Shown piece after piece: positions 2,066 through 9,619 of a stretch of 9,619 bases of DNA. The DNA comes from a virus (Duplodnaviria; Heunggongvirae; Uroviricota; Caudoviricetes), in IMG/VR virus record IMGVR_UViG_2617270957_000009, positions 1-9,619 of that record; one strand, 5' to 3'. The notes below the pieces were generated by a model. It saw only the letters and a list, made by a program, of their open reading frames with translations, was not told the origin of the DNA and ran no database searches. Numbering within the stretch: the stretch's first letter is position 1; the number at the start of each line of letters is the position of its first letter. The position numbers and the translations under genes are program-made.

Positions 2066-5000
2066 ATGGGTAAAGGCAGCAGTAAGGGGCATACCCCGCG
2101 CGAAGCAAAGGACAACCTGAAGTCCACGCAGTTGCTGAGTGTGATCGATGCCATCAGCGAAGGGCCGGTTGAAGGTCCGGTGGATGGATTAAAAAGCGTG
2201 CTGCTGAACAGTACACCGGTGCTGGACAGTGAGGGAAATACCAACATCTCCGGCGTCACGGTGGTGTTCCGGGCAGGTGAGCAGGAACAGACACCGCCGG
2301 AGGGATTTGAATCATCAGGTTCCGAGACGGTACTGGGTACGGAAGTGAAATACGACACGCCGATCACCCACACCATTACGTCTGCAAACATCGACCGTCT
2401 GCGCTTTACCTTCGGTGTGCAGGCACTGGTGGAAACCACTTCAAAGGGGGACCGTAATCCATCGGAAGTCCGCCTGCTGGTTCAGATACAGCGTAACGGT
2501 GGCTGGGTGACGGAAAAAGACATCACCATTAAGGGCAAAACCACCTCGCAGTATCTGGCCTCGGTGGTGGTGGATAACCTGCCTCCGCGCCCGTTCAACA
2601 TCCGGATGCGCAGGATGACGCCGGACAGCACCACAGACCAGCTGCAGAACAAAACGCTCTGGTCGTCATACACCGAAATCATCGATGTGAAACAGTGCTA
2701 CCCGAACACGGCACTGGTCGGCGTGCAGGTGGACTCGGAACAGTTCGGCAGCCAGCAGGTGAGCCGTAATTATCATCTTCGCGGGCGCATTCTGCAGGTG
2801 CCGTCGAACTATAACCCGCAGACGCGGCAATACAGCGGTATCTGGGACGGGACGTTTAAACCGGCATACAGCAACAACATGGCCTGGTGTCTGTGGGATA
2901 TGCTGACCCACCCGCGCTACGGCATGGGTAAACGTCTTGGTGCGGCAGATGTGGATAAATGGGCGCTGTATGTCATCGGCCAGAATTGCGACCAGTCGGT
3001 GCCGGACGGTTTTGGCGGCACGGAGCCGCGCATCACCTGTAATGCGTACCTGACCACACAGCGCAAGGCGTGGGATGTGCTCAGTGATTTTTGCTCGGCG
3101 ATGCGCTGTATGCCGGTATGGAACGGGCAGACGCTGACATTCGTGCAGGACCGACCGTCGGATAAGGTGTGGACCTATAACCGCAGTAATGTGGTGATGC
3201 CGGATGATGGCGCGCCGTTCCGCTACAGCTTCAGCGCCCTGAAGGACCGCCATAATGCCGTTGAGGTGAACTGGATTGACCCGGATAACGGCTGGGAGAC
3301 GGCGACAGAGCTTGTGGAGGACACGCAGGCCATTGCCCGTTACGGTCGTAACGTCACGAAGATGGATGCCTTTGGCTGTACCAGTCGGGGGCAGGCACAC
3401 CGCGCCGGGCTGTGGCTGATTAAAACGGAGCTGCTGGAAACGCAGACCGTGGACTTCAGCGTGGGCGCAGAAGGGCTTCGCCATGTACCGGGCGATGTCA
3501 TTGAAATCTGCGATGATGACTATGCGGGTATCAGCATCGGCGGGCGCGTGCTGGCGGTGAACAGCCAGGCGCGGACACTGACGCTCGACCGTGAAATCAT
3601 GCTGCCATCCTCCGGCACCACGCTGATAAGCCTGGTTGACGGAAATGGCAATCCGGTCAGCGTGGAGGTCCAGTCCGTCACCGACGGCGTGAAGGTGAAA
3701 GTGAGCCGTGTTCCTGACGGCGTTGCCGGATACAGCGTGTGGGGACTGAAGCTGCCGACGCTGCGCCAGCGCCTGTTCCGCTGCGTGAGTATCCGTGAGA
3801 ACGACGACGGCACGTATGCCATCACCGCCGTGCAGCATGTACCGGCAAAAGAGGCCATCGTGGATAACGGGGCGCACTTTGACGGCGACCAGAGCGGCAC
3901 GGTGAATGGTGTCACGCCGCCAGCAGTGCAGCACCTGACTGCCGAAGTCACCGCAGACAGCGGGGAGTATCAGGTACTGGCCCGCTGGGACACGCCGAAG
4001 GTGGTGAAGGGCGTAAGTTTCATGCTTCGCCTGACCGTGGCAGCGGATGACGGCAGTGAGCGGCTGGTCAGCACAGCCCGGACGGCGGAAACCACATACC
4101 GCTTCACACAACTGGCGCTGGGGAACTACAGGCTGACAGTCCGGGCAGTAAATGCGTGGGGGCAGCAGGGCGATCCGGCATCGGTATCGTTCCGGATTGC
4201 CGCACCGGCAGCGCCGTCGCAGATTGAGCTGACACCGGGGTATTTTCAGATAACCGCCACGCCGCATCTTGCGGTTTATGATCCGACGGTACAGTTTGAG
4301 TTCTGGTTCTCGGAAAAGCGGATTGCGGATATCAGGCAGGTTGAAACCACAGCACGCTATCTTGGCACGGCGCTGTACTGGATAGCCGCCAGTATCAATA
4401 TCAAACCGGGCCATGATTATTATTTTTACATCCGCAGTGTGAACACCGTTGGCAAATCGGCATTTGTGGAGGCTGTTGGCCAGCCGAGTGATGATGCATC
4501 CGGCTATCTGAATTTTTTCAAAGGAGAGATAGGGAAAACCCATCTGGCTCAGGAGTTGTGGACGCAGATTGATAACGGTCAGCTTGCGCCTGACCTGGCT
4601 GAAATCAGGACGTCCATTACGGGTGTCAGCAATGAAATCACGCAGACCGTCAATAAGAAACTGGAAGACCAGAGTGCAGCGATCCAGCAGATACAGAAGG
4701 TTCAGGTTGATACAAATAATAATCTGAACAGCATGTGGGCTGTGAAGCTGCAGCAGATGCAGGATGGACGCCTTTATATTGCGGGTATCGGTGCCGGTAT
4801 TGAGAACACCCCTGACGGCATGCAGAGTCAGGTGCTGCTGGCGGCGGACAGGATTGCGATGGTTAATCCTGCGAATGGCAACACAAAACCGATGTTTGTT
4901 GGTCAGGGCGATCAGATATTCATGAACGACGTGTTCCTGAAACGCCTGACGGCCCCCACCATTACCAGCGGTGGAAATCCACCGGCATTTTCCCTGACAC

Positions 5001-5548
5001 CGGACGGGCGGCTGACGGCGAAAAATGCCGATATCAGCGGTAACGTGAATGCGAACTCCGGGACGCTCAACAACGTCACGATTAACGAGAACTGTCGGAT
5101 TCTGGGAAAACTGTCAGCTAACCAGATTGAAGGTGATATTGTCAAAACGGTGGGAAAAGCCTTTCCGAGAAATGGCAGTTATGCCAGCGGTACAATAACG
5201 GTCACTGTGTACGATGACCAGGCTTTTGACCGTCAGATAGTAGTCCCCCCCGTTCTGTTTCGCGGTGGTAAGCATGAAAACTTCAACAGCAACAACCAAC
5301 AGTCATACTGGTATTCAACCTGTAAGCTGCAGGTGCTGAAGAACGGACAGGAAATCTTTCAGCAACCCGCGACGGATGTCAGCAGGGTATTTTCATCAGT
5401 CATTGATATGCCTGCCGGACACGGCCATGTCACCCTGACTTTCAATGTTTCTTCATATGGTGCAAATAACTGGACGCCAACGACCAGTATCAGCGACCTT
5501 CTTGTTGTCGTGATGAAGAAATCAACAGCCGGTATCAGTATCAGTTGA
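2066..5548 (+). CDS. J: Central tail fibre / host specificity protein J
   Basis: 1160-aa ORF with a strong RBS (GAGGA 5 nt before ATG). The N-terminal roughly 800 aa match my recollection of lambda gpJ ([34 protein letters not shown]...), including a fibronectin-III-like segment. The C-terminal roughly 350 aa are a mosaic of conserved islands ([38 protein letters not shown]) and divergent stretches. Stop is TGA at 5546-5548. Confidence 0.95.
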
Positions 5549-5593: not shown

Positions 5594-5606
5594 TTGTGGA
5601 GTGAAT

Positions 5607-7961
5607 ATGGCAGTACAGATTTCAGGTGTGCTGAAAGACGGTGCAGGAAAACCGATACAGAACTGCACCATTCAGCTCAAAGCAAAACGTAACAGCACCA
5701 CGGTTGTGGTAAACACGGTGGCCTCAGAAAATCCGGATGAAGCCGGACGTTACAGCATGGATGTCGAGTATGGCCAGTACAGCGTTATCCTGCTGGTTGA
5801 AGGTTTTCCGCCTTCACATGCCGGGACCATTACCGTCTATGAAGGTTCCAGTCCGGGGACGCTGAATGATTTTCTCGGTGCCATGACGGAAGATGATGTC
5901 ATGCCGGAGGCATTGCGTCGTTTTGAGGCAATGGTGGAAGAAGCGGCACGCAACGCCGAAGCCGCCTCTCAGAGCGCAGCGGCGGCAAAGAAATCCGAAA
6001 CTGCAGCGGCATCATCGAAGAACGCGGCGAAAACCTCAGAAACGAATGCAGCTAATAGTGCACAGGCGGCAGCGACCTCACAGACTGCATCGGCAAACTC
6101 CGCGACAGCAGCCAAAAAATCAGAAACCAACGCGAAAAATAGCGAGACAGCCGCAAAGACGAGTGAAATCAACGCAAAGTCCAGCCAGACGGCAGCGAAG
6201 ACCAGCGAAACGAATGCCAAAGCCAGTGAAACTGCGGCGAAAAGCAGTCAAGCTGCAGCAGCCGAAAGCGAGAGTGTTGCAGCCGGTTCTGCGACTTCAG
6301 CAGCTGGATCAGCAACTGCTGCGGCTAACAGCCAGAAAGCTGCGAAGACGAGTGAAACTAACGCAAAGTCCAGCCAGACGGCAGCGAAGACCAGCGAAAC
6401 GAATGCCAAAGCCAGCGAAACTGCGGCGAAAAACAGTCAGGATGCAGCAGCCGAAAGCGAGAGTGCTGCAGCTGGTTCTGCAACAGCGGCAGCTAATAGC
6501 CAAAAAGCTGCAAAAGCCAGTGAAACTAACGCAAAGACGAGTGAAACAAAAGCAGCAGCTAGCGAGACAGAAGCAACGTCAGCCGCAACAAGAGCAGAGA
6601 ATGCAGCCCGGATTGCAGAAGATGCCGCTGATCCTGCTTCTGTCCCTCCGCTTCCTGATATCTGGCTACCCATGAATGATTCTCTGGAAGCGATAACAGG
6701 GTATGCCCCGGGCTATAAAACAATAACCATCGGCAGTGATGAAATAACAATGCCTGTTAATGGCATATGCCAATTTAGCCGGGCTTCATCTGCAACGTAT
6801 ATTGATAAGTCAGGGCATATTACCGTGGCAGGGAATAACGTTCCTCGTTTTGAAAAATATGGTTTGCTGATAGAGAATCAGCGAACAAACATGTTCGTAA
6901 ATAGTTTTAATCCTGATGCCTGGAATAAAAGCGGTGGTATATCTGTAACATCATCAACAGATGAATTTGAGTTTAAATATGGACGTTTCACAGTAGGAAG
7001 CGACATAGCAGGAACGACAACAGGGAGAAATATATGCACAGTTGCTGGTAATAAAGGCATAGATGTGACTGGCGATGATCAGTACAGTAAAGGTCCGTAT
7101 GTTACCGCGTCGTTCAGGGTAAGAAGTGATCTCAATGTTCGCGCACGTATCCGTTTTGAACGGTATAACTCGGAAGGATACACTTTCCTTTGTGACGCCT
7201 ATTTGTCATTACAGACCCATGAACTACAAATTACGGGTGGTAATGCCCAGCTATTAACAGCAAACTTTGAAATCGATCCAGGTAGTGGATGGATATATTT
7301 TCAGGCAACCCTGAAATGTTTGCCAGAATGGGGAATGGTTGGTACGCAGTTGCAAATTGCAGCCGACAGAGCTGTGGGGTCTTTTGCAACAGGTGACTGG
7401 ATAGAAGTAACCACCCCGCAATTTGAGTATGGTGCTTGTGCAACTTCCTTTATCATAACGACAACAGAGCCAGCTACTCGTGCATCAGATTTATGTAAAT
7501 TTCCGCTGATGAAAAATATGTATACCATGCCTTTTACGTTCATGGTGGAAGTCCATAAAAACTGGTTTATTTCTCATAATGCTGCACCGCGTGTCATTGA
7601 TTCAGAAAATCACCAGTCCGGGGGCCCATTTATTATGGGGTTTGGTTCTTCTGGAACTATCAGTCAGGACGGTTATTCGTATTGCGATATAGGCGGGGCT
7701 AACCGACGTGTATATGAGTCATGCGGAGTAAGAGATCTCGTTATGGGATTCAGGGTTAAGGCTGACGGCATGACATGCTCATTTGCAAATAAGCATATAA
7801 GCACAGAAACAAAAACAGTATGGAAATATATTCGTGAAGCTGCTGTGATTCGTATCGGGGGACAAACGACGACAGGATTACGACACCTTAATGGTCATAT
7901 AAAAAACCTCCGTTTCTGGAACAGAGCATTGTCAGATACGCAGCTTAAGGAATACGTATAA
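5607..7961 (+). CDS. stf: Side tail fibre protein (lambda Stf-like N-terminus, Ala/Ser-rich repeat shaft, LamG/concanavalin A-like C-terminal domain)
   Basis: The ORF track starts at GTG 5601, but ATG 5607 with GGAG at 5598-5601 (5-nt spacer) is the better start, giving MAVQISGVLKDGAGKPIQNCTIQLKAKRNSTTVVVNTV..., which matches the conserved N-terminus of lambda Stf. The middle is repetitive (AAKTSETNAK...). The C-terminus ends in ...IRIGGQTTTGLRHLNGHIKNLRFWNRALSDTQLKEYV, typical of the final strands of LamG-type jelly-roll domains. Stop is TAA at 7959-7961. Length is 784 aa from ATG 5607. Confidence 0.88.
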   Translation: MAVQISGVLKDGAGKPIQNCTIQLKAKRNSTTVVVNTVASENPDEAGRYSMDVEYGQYSVILLVEGFPPSHAGTITVYEGSSPGTLNDFLGAMTEDDVMPEALRRFEAMVEEAARNAEAASQSAAAAKKSETAAASSKNAAKTSETNAANSAQAAATSQTASANSATAAKKSETNAKNSETAAKTSEINAKSSQTAAKTSETNAKASETAAKSSQAAAAESESVAAGSATSAAGSATAAANSQKAAKTSETNAKSSQTAAKTSETNAKASETAAKNSQDAAAESESAAAGSATAAANSQKAAKASETNAKTSETKAAASETEATSAATRAENAARIAEDAADPASVPPLPDIWLPMNDSLEAITGYAPGYKTITIGSDEITMPVNGICQFSRASSATYIDKSGHITVAGNNVPRFEKYGLLIENQRTNMFVNSFNPDAWNKSGGISVTSSTDEFEFKYGRFTVGSDIAGTTTGRNICTVAGNKGIDVTGDDQYSKGPYVTASFRVRSDLNVRARIRFERYNSEGYTFLCDAYLSLQTHELQITGGNAQLLTANFEIDPGSGWIYFQATLKCLPEWGMVGTQLQIAADRAVGSFATGDWIEVTTPQFEYGACATSFIITTTEPATRASDLCKFPLMKNMYTMPFTFMVEVHKNWFISHNAAPRVIDSENHQSGGPFIMGFGSSGTISQDGYSYCDIGGANRRVYESCGVRDLVMGFRVKADGMTCSFANKHISTETKTVWKYIREAAVIRIGGQTTTGLRHLNGHIKNLRFWNRALSDTQLKEYV
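6156..6512 (+). repeat. In-frame near-perfect tandem duplication (189-nt unit = 63 aa) inside the stf shaft region
   Basis: Copy 1 at 6156-6344 and copy 2 at 6345-6512 are almost identical at nucleotide level (AAGACGAGTGAAA.CAACGCAAAGTCCAGCCAGACGGCAGCGAAGACCAGCGAAACGAATGCCAAAGCCAG...). Copy 2 lacks a 21-nt segment (GSATSAAGSATAAANSQ versus GSATAAANSQ). Degenerate shorter units encoding AAK(T/S)SETNA extend from about 5985 to about 6570. Confidence 0.85.
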
Positions 7962-8230
7962 TGCGGGATATAACATTACGATTCGATAACAGAGAACAGT
8001 TTAACGCAATTGTATATGACAGTGGCCTGTTCAGTCTTGAAGAAGAAAACGGGGTTCTTGTTGATGTTATTGGCTGCATTATCGATTACGAGGAGCCAGA
8101 AAACGAAAGATGTACAGGCATTGATCGCGGTGGTTTTTTCGTAAACATGAGGATTGTTGATAGCAGTAAAAACATATCTTCTTTAATGCCTTTCATTACG
8201 ACAGATCAGCATGTAAGGACATGGGCTTAA
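7961..8230 (+). CDS. Hypothetical small acidic protein (89 aa), translationally coupled to stf; function unknown
   Basis: Its ATG at 7961-7963 overlaps the stf stop codon (TAATG), and AAGGAA lies 8 nt upstream. The ORF is A+T-rich and acidic (MRDITLRFDNREQFNAIVYDSGLFSLEEENGVLVDVIGCIIDYEEPENER...). I recognise no motif. It does not resemble lambda-type Tfa. Confidence 0.6.
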   Translation: MRDITLRFDNREQFNAIVYDSGLFSLEEENGVLVDVIGCIIDYEEPENERCTGIDRGGFFVNMRIVDSSKNISSLMPFITTDQHVRTWA

Positions 8231-8242
8231 TGGAGTAAGACA

Positions 8243-9283
8243 ATGGTTACAAAAACAGTAATTCCTGAAGACATCAAAACGCTAAAATCCGACGTTAGAA
8301 AATTAAAAAACGATCAAGGAAGCTACGCAACAAAATCATATGTAGACAGCAAAGATGAAACCGTTGGTGACTGGTCTGCTTCATGGTATCAGCAGGTATT
8401 GCCAACTAGCGGAGCTATATTTGGGAGAAAACTCCGCTCAACTCACCGGACGGCAGGTGTTGAGGATGCGTATTGCGAACTATACCTCAAAAAATGGATA
8501 GACAGTCCAGGTAACGCAATGGCGCGCCTTAACCTGAACGATAACGGGACAAACATTTGCTGGGACTTTACCAACCTTTATGGCGGTACGATGATTTTTC
8601 CCGGTGGCAGCGGATACCTCAAAATGGGTAACTGCCTTATGTCATACAGCAAGCGTGGAAGTAACGCGCTTATTAAATTTGATTACACCGACACATTACA
8701 GATCAAATATGCTAATCATGGGTCAACCATGACATTAAACACACAGGGAACCGCTTATGCTGGTGTTACCGCTAAATTGTGGGGCAACTCCAGCCGTCCT
8801 GTTGTTTATGAAGTCGGTGTTGATGGTGGCGCTTATATGTTCTACGGTCAGAAACAAACCGATAATACCTATGCGTTCGCTGTTAATGGTGCATGTCATG
8901 CCACCGCCTTTAACCAGGCTTCCGACCGAGATCTGAAAGATAATCTTCAGGTGATTGATAATGCAACAGATCGCATCCGCAAGATGAACGGCTATACCTA
9001 TACCCTTAAGGAAAACGGTATGCCCTATGCAGGTGTCATTGCACAGGAAGCTCTGGAAGCAATCCCGGAAGTTGTAGGCTCCGCAATGAAATATCAGGAC
9101 GGTGGAAACGGCTCGGAAGGGGAAGAAGGTGAGCGTTACTACACTGTAGATTATTCTGGTATTACTGGCTTGCTTGTTCAGGTAGCCAGAGAGTCAGACG
9201 ACAGAATAACAGCACTGGAAGAAGAAAACGCAGAATTAAGACAAAGATTATCTGCAATTGAGGCGGCGCTTGCGTCTAAATAA
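8243..9283 (+). CDS. Tail fibre / tailspike-like protein with C-terminal peptidase S74 intramolecular chaperone (auto-processing) domain
   Basis: GGAG lies 7 nt upstream of the ATG. The C-terminal roughly 120 aa fit the S74 chaperone-domain pattern: SDRDLKDN...(K)MNGYTYTLKENG.PYAGVIAQEALEAIPEVV...ERYYTVDYSGITGLLVQVARE, followed by a coiled-coil-like tail (ITALEEENAELRQRLSAIEAALASK). The N-terminal 226 aa are Gly/Thr/Tyr-rich and beta-rich in character. Confidence 0.82.
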   Translation: MVTKTVIPEDIKTLKSDVRKLKNDQGSYATKSYVDSKDETVGDWSASWYQQVLPTSGAIFGRKLRSTHRTAGVEDAYCELYLKKWIDSPGNAMARLNLNDNGTNICWDFTNLYGGTMIFPGGSGYLKMGNCLMSYSKRGSNALIKFDYTDTLQIKYANHGSTMTLNTQGTAYAGVTAKLWGNSSRPVVYEVGVDGGAYMFYGQKQTDNTYAFAVNGACHATAFNQASDRDLKDNLQVIDNATDRIRKMNGYTYTLKENGMPYAGVIAQEALEAIPEVVGSAMKYQDGGNGSEGEEGERYYTVDYSGITGLLVQVARESDDRITALEEENAELRQRLSAIEAALASK

Positions 9284-9289
9284 TATTAA

Positions 9290-9312
9290 GGGGCCGAGCG
9301 CCCCGTTTTATT
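9290..9312 (+). terminator. Rho-independent terminator after the S74 fibre gene
   Basis: Stem GGGGC (9290-9294) / GCCCC (9300-9304) with a 5-nt loop, followed by GTTTTATT, immediately after the TAA stop at 9281-9283. Confidence 0.65.
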
Positions 9313-9325
9313 GGGTAGGATGAAA

Positions 9326-9619
9326 ATGGATATAACACCTTTCCTTCATGCACTTTGTGCTGTGGCTGCACAGCTACTGATTGGTCTTTTTACCGGGAAC
9401 TGGGCTTACGGAGCGATAGTCGGTTGTACGTTCTTCATTGCGCGTGAACACACCCAGGCAGAATATCGCTGGATTGAAATGTTCGGGCATGGCAAGCGAA
9501 TGAATATGCCGTGGTGGGGCGGTTTTGATCCTCGTGCTTGGGATGTGGCAAGCCTGATGGATTTTGCTGTGCCGGTGGTGGCGTGTCTGCTGGTCTGGCT
9601 GTTGGTTAATCGTGGGTGA
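9326..9619 (+). CDS. Small predicted inner-membrane protein (about 97 aa, three hydrophobic segments), function unknown
   Basis: The ORF runs to TGA at 9617-9619. AGGA at 9317-9320 is well spaced for ATG 9326; in-frame alternatives are ATG 9320 and TTG 9311. Hydrophobic helices: FLHALCAVAAQLLIGLFTG, AYGAIVGCTFFIA and LMDFAVPVVACLLVWLLV, with a Trp/Gly-rich loop (PWWGGFDPRAWD). I do not recognise the family. Confidence 0.6.
   Translation: MDITPFLHALCAVAAQLLIGLFTGNWAYGAIVGCTFFIAREHTQAEYRWIEMFGHGKRMNMPWWGGFDPRAWDVASLMDFAVPVVACLLVWLLVNRG

Follow-up and report, generated by a model that had tools for sequence, protein, structure and literature searches.

In the window, by which we mean the whole stretch of 9,619 nucleotides of viral DNA that was analysed, the gene at positions 8243-9283 (+ strand) encodes the 346-aa precursor of a protein that we regard with good confidence as the distal, exchangeable subunit that binds the receptor in a side (lateral) tail fibre built of two parts and encoded by a lambda-like E. 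coli prophage. Judged from its sequence and its neighbours, this distal fibre gene is the third gene of a mobile three-gene cassette, which recurs in many groups of coliphages. The protein itself is of an ordinary phage kind. Its family is already well annotated and the S74 assignment adds nothing new: public records carry PF13884 and the names 'tail fiber domain-containing protein', 'peptidase S74' and 'endosialidase chaperone'. The useful outcome is the context, in which the outer subunit would be swappable behind an anchor of 15 residues.

The protein matched phrog_4563 ('tail fiber protein') over positions 1-346 of 346 (E=8e-213), and its open reading frame is closed by the stop codon TAA at 9281-9283. 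A sequence-only reading of the same DNA had placed a self-cleaving S74 chaperone domain in the C-terminal part and had left its support to profile searches. The domain was borne out by Pfam: PF13884 (Peptidase_S74) matched residues 227-278 with its model positions 1-57 (E=4.3e-13), starting at Ser227, and the score of 49.8 bits against a gathering cut-off of 22 bits is far beyond what chance would give. The S74 intramolecular chaperone domain (residues 227-346, 13.2 kDa; 8921-9280, +) forms the extreme C-terminus of the 346 residues, with a T4 gp34-like fibre domain upstream, and 8921-9283 is exactly Ser227 through the stop codon. The predicted scissile bond is Ala226|Ser227. Ser227 (codon TCC, 8921-8923, +), the predicted nucleophile, stands at position 1 of the Pfam model, is preceded by GCT for Ala226 and is followed by D228, R229, D230, L231 and K232; Lys232 (codon AAA, 8936-8938, +) is the predicted general base of a Ser-Lys dyad. 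In an alignment of 42 homologues (36-94% identity), S227, D228, L231 and K232 were invariant. The profile of these homologues matched the chaperone of phage S16 gp37 in the PDB (6f45, E=2.5e-7), where SDRRIK lines up with SDRDLK, and gave a weak match, via IMC columns, to myelin regulatory factor (7dc3, E=0.09). In T5 pb1 the catalytic pair is Ser1264/Lys1269, and the mutation S1264A blocks cleavage (PMC4690869); the spacing of Ser227 and Lys232 is the same, which supports the predicted dyad. The motif, the S+5 position of the lysine and the C-terminal location all fit the cleavage site that had been proposed from the letters, and a cut at Ala226|Ser227 would yield fragments of 24.9 kDa (residues 1-226) and 13.2 kDa (residues 227-346), where about 24 and 13 kDa had been expected. 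That the protein ends in a self-cleaving S74 folding domain is thus confirmed at the level of sequence, with the cleavage itself predicted by homology.

Structure prediction was of more limited use. The AF2 monomer of the 346-aa protein, made from the 42-sequence alignment, had a pLDDT of 62 and a pTM of 0.32, with the chaperone region below 50, too low for judging the catalytic geometry; a long helix was predicted at the end of the S74 domain (residues 304-345, pLDDT 66-88). R185 and E190 were also invariant in the 42 homologues, and their structural placement was hampered by the unreliability of the monomer around the site. In T5 pb1, cleavage is tied to correct folding of the trimer via two upstream 'folding sensor' residues, Arg1250 and Asp1239, of a neighbouring chain (PMC4690869).

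The three genes of the cassette lie on one strand with very short spacers, in the order proximal fibre, ~90-aa gene, distal fibre. The first (5601-7961, +) encodes a Stf-like proximal side tail fibre of 786 aa, which matched phrog_1419 over its full length and PF08400 (phage_tail_N) with E=1e-67. Its lambda-type tail-attachment N-terminus (residues 3-133, the PF08400 domain) is followed by a shaft of Ala-rich repeats and then by a conserved domain at the C-terminus; 189-bp tandem repeats occur in the gene at 6141-6554. The C-terminal domain of ~437 aa (residues 350-786; 6648-7958, +) starts with PLPDIWLP and matched NF048003 GTA_spike_fiber (E=2e-12), with a weak Laminin_G_3 match at its extreme C-terminus, and tblastn found it in 218 phage records. 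Within the cassette this part does not depend on lineage, and we propose it as the docking platform for the distal subunit. The second gene (7961-8230, +) encodes an 89-aa protein of phrog_1361 ('unknown function') and is always found between the proximal and distal fibre genes. Its AF2 model (pLDDT 69) has a beta-alpha-beta-beta-alpha topology, and the fold matched only uncharacterised phage proteins. Exhaustive phmmer searching returned six matches, of which two distant ones in Ig-like and cadherin repeat proteins were judged spurious because the model is alpha/beta. Word-indexed protein searches, both with this protein and with the 44-residue N-terminus of the distal protein, returned only fragments and were uninformative on distribution. 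The 89-aa protein is a candidate assembly factor or adaptor. Direct reading of the sequence shows a Shine-Dalgarno GGAG (8232-8235, +) that precedes the ATG at 8243 by 7 nt, and a terminator-like hairpin GGGGCCGAGCGCCCC followed by a T-run (9290-9310, +) lies directly 3' of the distal gene. A 102-aa hydrophobic ORF then follows (9311-9619, +; phrog_1443, 'unknown function'); it is given as context only, with no proposed fibre role, and it comes directly after the ~90-aa gene in cassettes that have no distal gene. NCBIfam holds no model for the 346-aa, the 89-aa or the 102-aa protein.

The same arrangement recurred in a sample of 130 sequences, namely the window and 129 other stretches, some viral contigs being present twice. 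There were 129 ~90-aa genes in the sample; S74 fibres of at least 300 aa started 10-13 nt after such a gene in 95 of 97 cases, and 49 of 50 small genes lay downstream of the conserved proximal C-terminal domain. Homologues of the 89-aa protein occupied the same position in every cassette. The cassette was found in lambda-like phages (the window, Tritos, PhiR47_1), in the 9g-like Nonagvirus (ESCO3, JenP1) and also in T5-like and T1-like phages, Dhillonvirus and relatives. The N-termini of the proximal fibres varied with lineage and tail type, whereas the ~437-aa C-terminus could be aligned across lambda-like, 9g-like, T5-like and Dhillonvirus-like loci. An invertible segment of the Pin/Gin type was considered as well (in Tritos, pinR lies downstream) and was rejected, as the search for crossover sites and inverted repeats yielded none that was credible. 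Cassettes that lack the distal gene retain the ~90-aa gene and an intact proximal fibre, which argues against a sole role of the small protein as adaptor of the distal fibre. A comparison of the proximal C-terminal domains between cassettes that have the distal gene and those that lack it revealed no segment that tells them apart, and no docking surface was located.

These cassettes without a third gene also bear on whether the S74 domain is retained uncleaved, or whether the protein as a whole serves the Stf-like fibre in trans, as a chaperone of its assembly, instead of binding a receptor. Such a role would suit a Stf-like fibre that comes with neither a Tfa-type chaperone gene nor an S74 domain of its own, the cleavage is predicted from homology, and the GenBank product name in ESCO3 is indeed 'endosialidase chaperone'. 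However, that name merely repeats the title of the Pfam domain, and the intact proximal fibres in cassettes without the third gene imply that the proximal fibre does not need it. Furthermore, the catalytic Ser and Lys are invariant, and the hypervariability of the body among alleles is typical of receptor-binding proteins. We therefore consider both versions very unlikely and keep to the distal receptor-binding subunit.

The distal gene is common. It was matched in 705 of 5426 complete E. coli genomes (about one in eight), in 470 of them with at least 80% coverage, and all 51 full-length copies from viral contigs and phage records sit in a lambda-type Stf cassette. One database cluster of the full-length 346-aa form has 2132 members, and plaque-forming isolates (Tritos, 2G7b, HannyBb, ESCO3) carry the gene. 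In the isolated phage PhiR47_1 it is disrupted by an amber codon at position 295; disrupted copies in isolated phages mean that the subunit is dispensable under some conditions. These disruptions, together with many database fragments of 254 aa or shorter, could be taken to mean that the ORF is a decaying and functionless recombination remnant, the C-terminal piece of a longer S74 fibre. In fact, phrog_6578 (1210 aa) matches both the N-terminal part of Stf and the C-terminal part of the 346-aa protein, indicating that single-polypeptide versions exist. Nevertheless, the dominance of the full-length form in the cluster, the genomes and the alleles, the intact Shine-Dalgarno sequence and terminator, the presence in phages that form plaques and a patterned conservation, in which anchor and chaperone are conserved and the body is variable, make decay highly improbable and agree better with a working distal subunit.

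This pattern was evident from the 51 alleles. Mean pairwise identity was 0.91 in residues 1-33 and again 0.91 in residues 227-346. The most variable segment, residues 34-110 (8342-8572, +), showed the highest column entropy and a mean identity of 0.66, and is a candidate receptor-binding region. A second variable segment (residues 171-226; 8753-8920, +), with a mean identity of 0.80, lies just before the cleavage site and carries the T4 gp34-like motif WGN..R..V.EVG..FY.Q. Here the 42-homologue profile matched the T4 gp34 structures 5nxf and 4uxe at E~2e-8; Foldseek of the AF2 monomer against the PDB likewise gave T4 gp34 (probability 0.96-0.97) and nothing else significant. Residues 171-226 would become the distal tip after departure of the chaperone.

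Residues 1-33 (8243-8341, +) begin with the peptide MVTKTVIPEDIKTLK and continue into what is predicted to be a short coiled coil, with a helix predicted by AF2 at residues 9-29, and they are conserved across otherwise unrelated distal fibres. Distal proteins of unrelated body all start with M-[VAT]-[TRS]-x-T-x-I-[PQ]-x-D-I-x-x-L-K, including the 346-aa and 227-aa S74 types, a 340-aa gp34-like type without S74, a T5-like type of 575-586 aa and the Phage_tail_C_2 type of KarlBarth. In Wifcevirus and others the same receptor-binding body matched only from residue 29 or 49 on, so that outside the cassette this body lacks the anchor. The N-terminal peptide is likely the anchor of the distal subunit, with the proximal fibre or the ~90-aa protein as its most likely docking partner. 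Similarly, for the lateral fibres of Drexlerviridae it has been noted that relatedness among the distal subunits is confined to the far N-terminus, 'where these are likely attached' (PMC8594841). The type of small protein covaried with distal residues 2-4 (VTK with the 89-aa type, ATS with the 93-aa type), though physical linkage alone can explain this. The sequence-only reading had described the mature fibre as unusually short and lacking an obvious attachment domain. It held true in that no catalogued attachment domain was found, but residues 1-33 are a conserved probable anchor with a predicted coiled coil, which all distal fibres of the cassette have in common. The shortness of the protein would follow from its being the distal subunit alone, while the long shaft and the tail-attachment domain belong to the 786-aa protein; S74 distal subunits even shorter, of 227 aa, exist.

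The 346-aa protein could instead be an independent short fibre, attached directly at the baseplate or tail tip (to gpJ or some other tail protein) and not carried by Stf. Its docking partner is one that we infer, the gene has a Shine-Dalgarno sequence and a terminator of its own, and some phages do have several independent fibres (PMC11990801). However, the same anchor recurs in five groups of phages that have unrelated tail tips (lambda J; T5 pb3/pb4 with LtfC; T1-like; 9g-like; Dhillonvirus), and nothing accompanies it throughout except the ~90-aa protein and the C-terminal domain of the proximal fibre. An independent fibre is thus very unlikely, and attachment through the Stf-like protein is preferred.

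The distal subunit may then be made and mounted as follows. The C-terminal S74 chaperone (residues 227-346) would bring three chains into register, its long helix forming a trimeric coiled coil by homology, and would act as a template on which the beta-rich body (residues ~34-226) folds. With the trimer correctly formed, Lys232 would activate Ser227 for the cut at Ala226|Ser227, and the 13-kDa chaperone would depart and expose the tip, by analogy with T5 pb1 and K1F endosialidase. The mature 25-kDa trimer would be held on the virion by residues 1-33, the N-terminal peptide and short coiled coil, docked on the conserved C-terminal region of the 786-aa Stf-like fibre, with the 89-aa protein possibly as adaptor or assembly factor; the conservation of gene context and the published model of the homologous IrisVonRoten fibre point to this docking. 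The Stf-like protein in turn would attach to the tail tip via its lambda-type N-terminal domain, which was recognised by Pfam. From the allele pattern, a variable surface glycan, e.g. O-antigen, is the probable ligand of segments 34-110 and 171-226; the link to O-antigen comes only from how the literature generally sees the lateral tail fibres of related siphophages (PMC8594841).

A wider reading is that the N-terminal ~15 residues (MVTKTVIPxDIxxLK), the ~90-aa protein and the proximal C-terminal domain make up a universal plug and socket, in which the ~90-aa protein is a new fibre adaptor or chaperone. We put this forward tentatively and consider it rather doubtful. If true, five unrelated siphophage lineages (lambda-, T1-, T5-, 9g- and Dhillonvirus-like) could exchange distal subunits. 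If anchor and socket were confirmed, they would offer a compact handle to retarget lambda-based delivery particles and other siphophages, with only the distal gene (about 1 kb) exchanged. The analysis also draws attention to the ~90-aa protein as a conserved fibre-associated protein.

Among known systems, lambda Stf with Tfa shares the PF08400 N-terminal domain and the position downstream of J, and the lambda side tail fibre has the same role as that of the window, being accessory and dispensable on laboratory hosts. It is different in that lambda Stf has its own receptor-binding C-terminus, folded by the separate chaperone Tfa, whereas in the window a LamG/GTA-spike-like C-terminus is followed by the ~90-aa gene, the distal subunit with S74 is a protein of its own, and there is no tfa gene. 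The paper on Gifsy-1 Stf made no mention of chaperones or cleavage. T5 pb1 (PDB 4UW7/4UW8; PMC4690869) and the chaperone of K1F endosialidase resemble the window's protein in their C-terminal S74 domain with a Lys five residues after the Ser; both are cut N-terminal to the Ser after trimer folding, and the chaperone, which has a trimeric coiled coil, masks the receptor-binding tip. However, T5 pb1 is a single polypeptide of 1396 aa that carries its own tail-attachment end, and its 'bullet' domain before the cleavage site had no detectable relation to residues 34-226 of the window's protein, which resembles T4 gp34 before Ser227. In the T5-like phages DT57C and DT571/2 (PMC4728585, PMC10713586) the fibre is likewise built from a pair of proteins, LtfA and LtfB. 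The second, S74-bearing protein has no domain for tail attachment and is kept in place by the first, as is proposed for the window, and the docking module is proposed to be a short stretch (~45 aa) at the N-terminus of LtfB. In contrast, LtfA has its own S74 domain and receptor-binding end, so that the fibre is branched and not end-to-end, no ~90-aa gene is described between the pair, and the N-terminus of LtfB is related to phiEco32 gp15.

The closest system is that of IrisVonRoten (Bas32, T5-like), which has three homologous genes in the same order: gp22 (proximal), gp23 (92 aa) and gp24 (distal). gp22 is 45% identical to the window's Stf-like protein over the shaft and C-terminal domain (E=0), and between gp23 and the 89-aa ORF the identity is 33% (E=9e-13). 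gp24 starts with MVTKTVIPTDITKLK and ends in a PF13884-type chaperone 29% identical to that of the window; the anchor and the chaperone of the two distal proteins matched with E=4e-4 and 1e-6, respectively. An AlphaFold-Multimer model placed the IMC-bearing 'T-shaped' distal fibre of IrisVonRoten on its proximal fibre, which has a protruding galectin-like C-terminal domain, this attachment being a prediction (PMC11990801). The bodies are different: gp24 has 574 aa and two receptor-binding domains (gp12-like and T5-like), and the 226-aa mature body of the window's protein is unrelated to either. The proximal ends differ as well, since the N-terminus of gp22 is T5 pb1/LtfA-like and uses LtfC, whereas that of the window is the lambda Stf PF08400 domain.

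The window represents the distal end of a lambda-like tail operon in which all genes lie on the + strand: besides gpL-, gpK- and gpI-like ORFs, it carries gpJ (1160 aa, 2066-5548), an Stf-like fibre (786 aa, 5601-7961), an 89-aa ORF (7961-8230), the 346-aa ORF under study (8243-9283) and a hydrophobic 102-aa ORF (9311-9619), which matched phrog_1443 and no Pfam or NCBIfam family. A Shine-Dalgarno GGAG is located 7 nt 5' of the ATG of the 346-aa gene, and a GC-rich hairpin with a T-run (9290-9310) lies 3' of the gene. The part of the Stf-like gene coding for the Ala-rich shaft contains a 189-bp tandem repeat (6141-6554; 1.8-2.1 copies, 83-92% matching) that encodes SETNAK-type peptide repeats and gives rise to long spurious ORFs in alternative frames on both strands (e.g., 5893-6675 +).

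The sequence-only reading had placed an autoproteolytic S74 chaperone domain at the C-terminus of the 346-aa protein, starting at Ser227, and this was borne out. Codon 8921-8923 is TCC (Ser227), preceded by Ala226 and followed by D-R-D-L-K, with the Lys232 codon at 8936-8938. Pfam PF13884 (Peptidase_S74) covered residues 227-278 (E=4.3e-13; score 49.8 bits, cut-off 22), and Ser227 aligned with model position 1. S227, D228, L231 and K232 were invariant among 42 homologues (36-94% identity), and the profile of these homologues matched the intramolecular chaperone of S16 gp37 (6f45) at E=2.5e-7 (SDRRIK vs SDRDLK). In T5 pb1, the scissile bond lies between Thr1263 and Ser1264, Lys1269 activates Ser1264, the S1264A mutation abolished cleavage, and the receptor site is masked by the chaperone (PMC4690869). 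The Ser-to-Lys spacing in the 346-aa protein was identical to that of Ser1264/Lys1269, and the predicted cleavage products were 24.9 and 13.2 kDa. Given the Pfam match, the invariance among homologues, the 6f45 match, the pb1-like spacing and the predicted product sizes, the S74 finding is real and its interpretation correct, and we infer that the protein cleaves itself. Proteins of this kind are already known and annotated; phrog_4563 ('tail fiber protein') matched the 346-aa protein over its full length.

The gene was matched in 705 of 5426 complete E. coli genomes, CFT073 among them, with at least 80% of its length covered in 470 of the 705. Isolated phages with the gene belonged to two unrelated groups, lambda-like phages (Tritos, 2G7b, HannyBb, PhiR47_1) and Nonagvirus (ESCO3, JenP1), and all of them had a 650-800-aa fibre, a ~90-aa gene and the 346-aa gene in that order. 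Among metagenome homologues of 38-45% identity, the same trio was found in a T5-like genome, where it adjoined pb4 and LtfC, and in a Dhillonvirus-like genome. In IMGVR_UViG_2724679539_000001 (loci L095 / L096), two opposite-facing copies of the 346-aa gene were observed ~7 kb or less apart.

Viral contigs encoding the ~90-aa protein or relatives of the 346-aa protein were surveyed, and their ORFs were scored with HMMs from alignments made in this analysis. The small gene was directly 3' of the conserved proximal C-terminal domain in 49 of 50 cases, the single exception being cut by the contig end. Of the 97 S74 proteins that were 300 aa or longer and had enough upstream sequence, 95 started 10-13 nt after a small gene; the 5' end was disrupted in the other two. 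The third place in the cassette proved to be an exchangeable slot. Its occupants were the S74 type of 346 aa, a 227-234-aa type (PF13884 from residue 109, E=6.6e-6), a type of 330-340 aa that has a T4 Gp34_trimer domain and lacks S74, T5-like S74 fibres of 575-586 aa and, in KarlBarth, a Phage_tail_C_2 type; the slot may also be empty, and the homologue of the 102-aa ORF then comes immediately after the ~90-aa gene (L011, L037, L039, L046 and L047 among the loci compared). The 102-aa ORF always came after the fibre cassette. The 227-234-aa 'mini' distal fibres (L012, 4783-5466; L013, L017, L030-L032, L034-L036, L038, L048) had the same anchor and a longer heptad region, and their predicted mature protein is only ~108 aa. 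A lambda-like clade (L011, which is Lambda_2G7a, L046 and L047) had the proximal fibre and a 92-aa gene and never a distal fibre gene; Lambda_2G7a carried sitABCD manganese transporter cargo 3' of the cassette. Tritos (L001) had a pinR-type invertase gene just downstream of its cassette (7626-8216). A search in and around the distal fibre gene found neither inverted repeats nor crossover sites of gix/hix type.

How so short a fibre without an obvious tail-attachment domain is anchored had been left as a question, and the three-gene cassette together with an N-terminal anchor supplies an answer at the level of inference. All slot occupants started with M-[VAT]-[TRS]-x-T-x-I-[PQ]-x-D-I-x-x-L-K, and a variable number of heptad-like repeats usually came next. 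In pairwise comparisons, otherwise unrelated occupants shared the N-terminus alone, plus the chaperone where present. Wifcevirus and others had the same receptor-binding body outside the cassette and matched only from residue 29 or 49, indicating that the anchor is missing there. T1-like phages, tunus and JK16 among them, also had the anchor, ~300 nt 3' of the proximal domain. The N-termini of the proximal fibres tracked phage lineage in the alignment of large fibres: lambda Stf PF08400 in the window and ESCO3, T5 pb1/LtfA-like in the T5-like locus and another type in Dhillonvirus-like loci. Their last ~437 residues, from PLPDVWIPFNDSL on, were conserved throughout, and 218 phage records had this domain, the groups including T1-like, T5-like, 9g-like, Dhillonvirus, lambda-like and rV5-like phages. 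The tail tips of these lineages are not related to each other, which leaves the anchor with just two constant partners, the ~90-aa protein and the C-terminal region of the proximal fibre. The case for the short fibre probably riding on the Stf-like fibre is built mainly on this. Within the conserved C-terminal domain of the proximal fibre, Stf residues 423-628 (6867-7484) matched NCBIfam NF048003 ('GTA head spike fiber domain') above cut-off (E=2e-12).

Among 51 distinct 346-aa alleles, mean pairwise identity was 0.91 in the anchor (residues 1-33), lowest at residues 34-110 (0.66), 0.90 in the conserved residues 111-170, 0.80 in the variable residues 171-226 and 0.91 in the chaperone (residues 227-346). 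This pattern, in which a variable binding body lies between an attachment end and a folding domain that are both constant, is the one usually seen in receptor-binding proteins. Just before Ser227, a T4 gp34-type motif was matched by profile (5nxf and 4uxe, E~2e-8) and by Foldseek (probability 0.96-0.97). The monomer model of the 346-aa protein was poor, and neither catalytic geometry nor a docking interface could be read from it. In PhiR47_1 (L002), which was isolated as a plaque former, the distal S74 gene (6344-7400) has an in-frame TAG (amber) at codon 295, inside the chaperone domain, and the reading frame is intact beyond it; this suggests that the stop is suppressed or that the phage did not need the distal subunit on its isolation host. 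The distal gene was also split in KarlBarth and truncated in L044, and such disruptions in isolated phages point to a subunit dispensable on some hosts, as is typical for lateral fibres.

For the ~90-aa protein, no Pfam or NCBIfam family was found, and an exhaustive phmmer search returned only six matches. Its AF2 model (pLDDT 69) had a beta-alpha-beta-beta-alpha topology, and the 89-aa protein gave no informative fold match. It was conserved beside the proximal fibre in every cassette, including those of rV5-like myophages, where the CarlMeissner (L009) counterpart is 110 aa. Because the gene is kept in cassettes without a distal gene, its role is at least partly tied to the proximal C-terminal domain. 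The small-protein type correlated with distal residues 2-4, which may reflect linkage alone. The protein may represent a new assembly factor or a new adaptor of the fibre, the two being equally likely, and the residual interest lies in this uncharacterised partner and the modular anchor.

Lateral fibres of siphophages may be built from a single polypeptide or from at least two (BASEL papers; PMC8594841), and in Drexlerviridae the relationship among distal subunits is confined to the far N-terminus, 'where these are likely attached' (PMC8594841). In T5-like IrisVonRoten, AlphaFold-Multimer placed the IMC-bearing distal fibre gp24 on the proximal fibre gp22, whose C-terminus forms a protruding galectin-like domain (PMC11990801). 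This locus is a homologous cassette to that of the window: gp22 shared 45% identity with the Stf-like protein, gp23 (92 aa) shared 33% with the 89-aa ORF, and gp24 starts MVTKTVIPTDITKLK and ends in a related chaperone. The last ~50 Stf residues (7800-7946) matched Laminin_G_3 weakly, below cut-off (E=4e-4), which is consistent with the galectin-like domain of gp22. LtfA/LtfB of DT57C provides another precedent, in which an S74 fibre without a tail-attachment domain is carried by the other fibre via a short N-terminal module (PMC4728585, PMC10713586).
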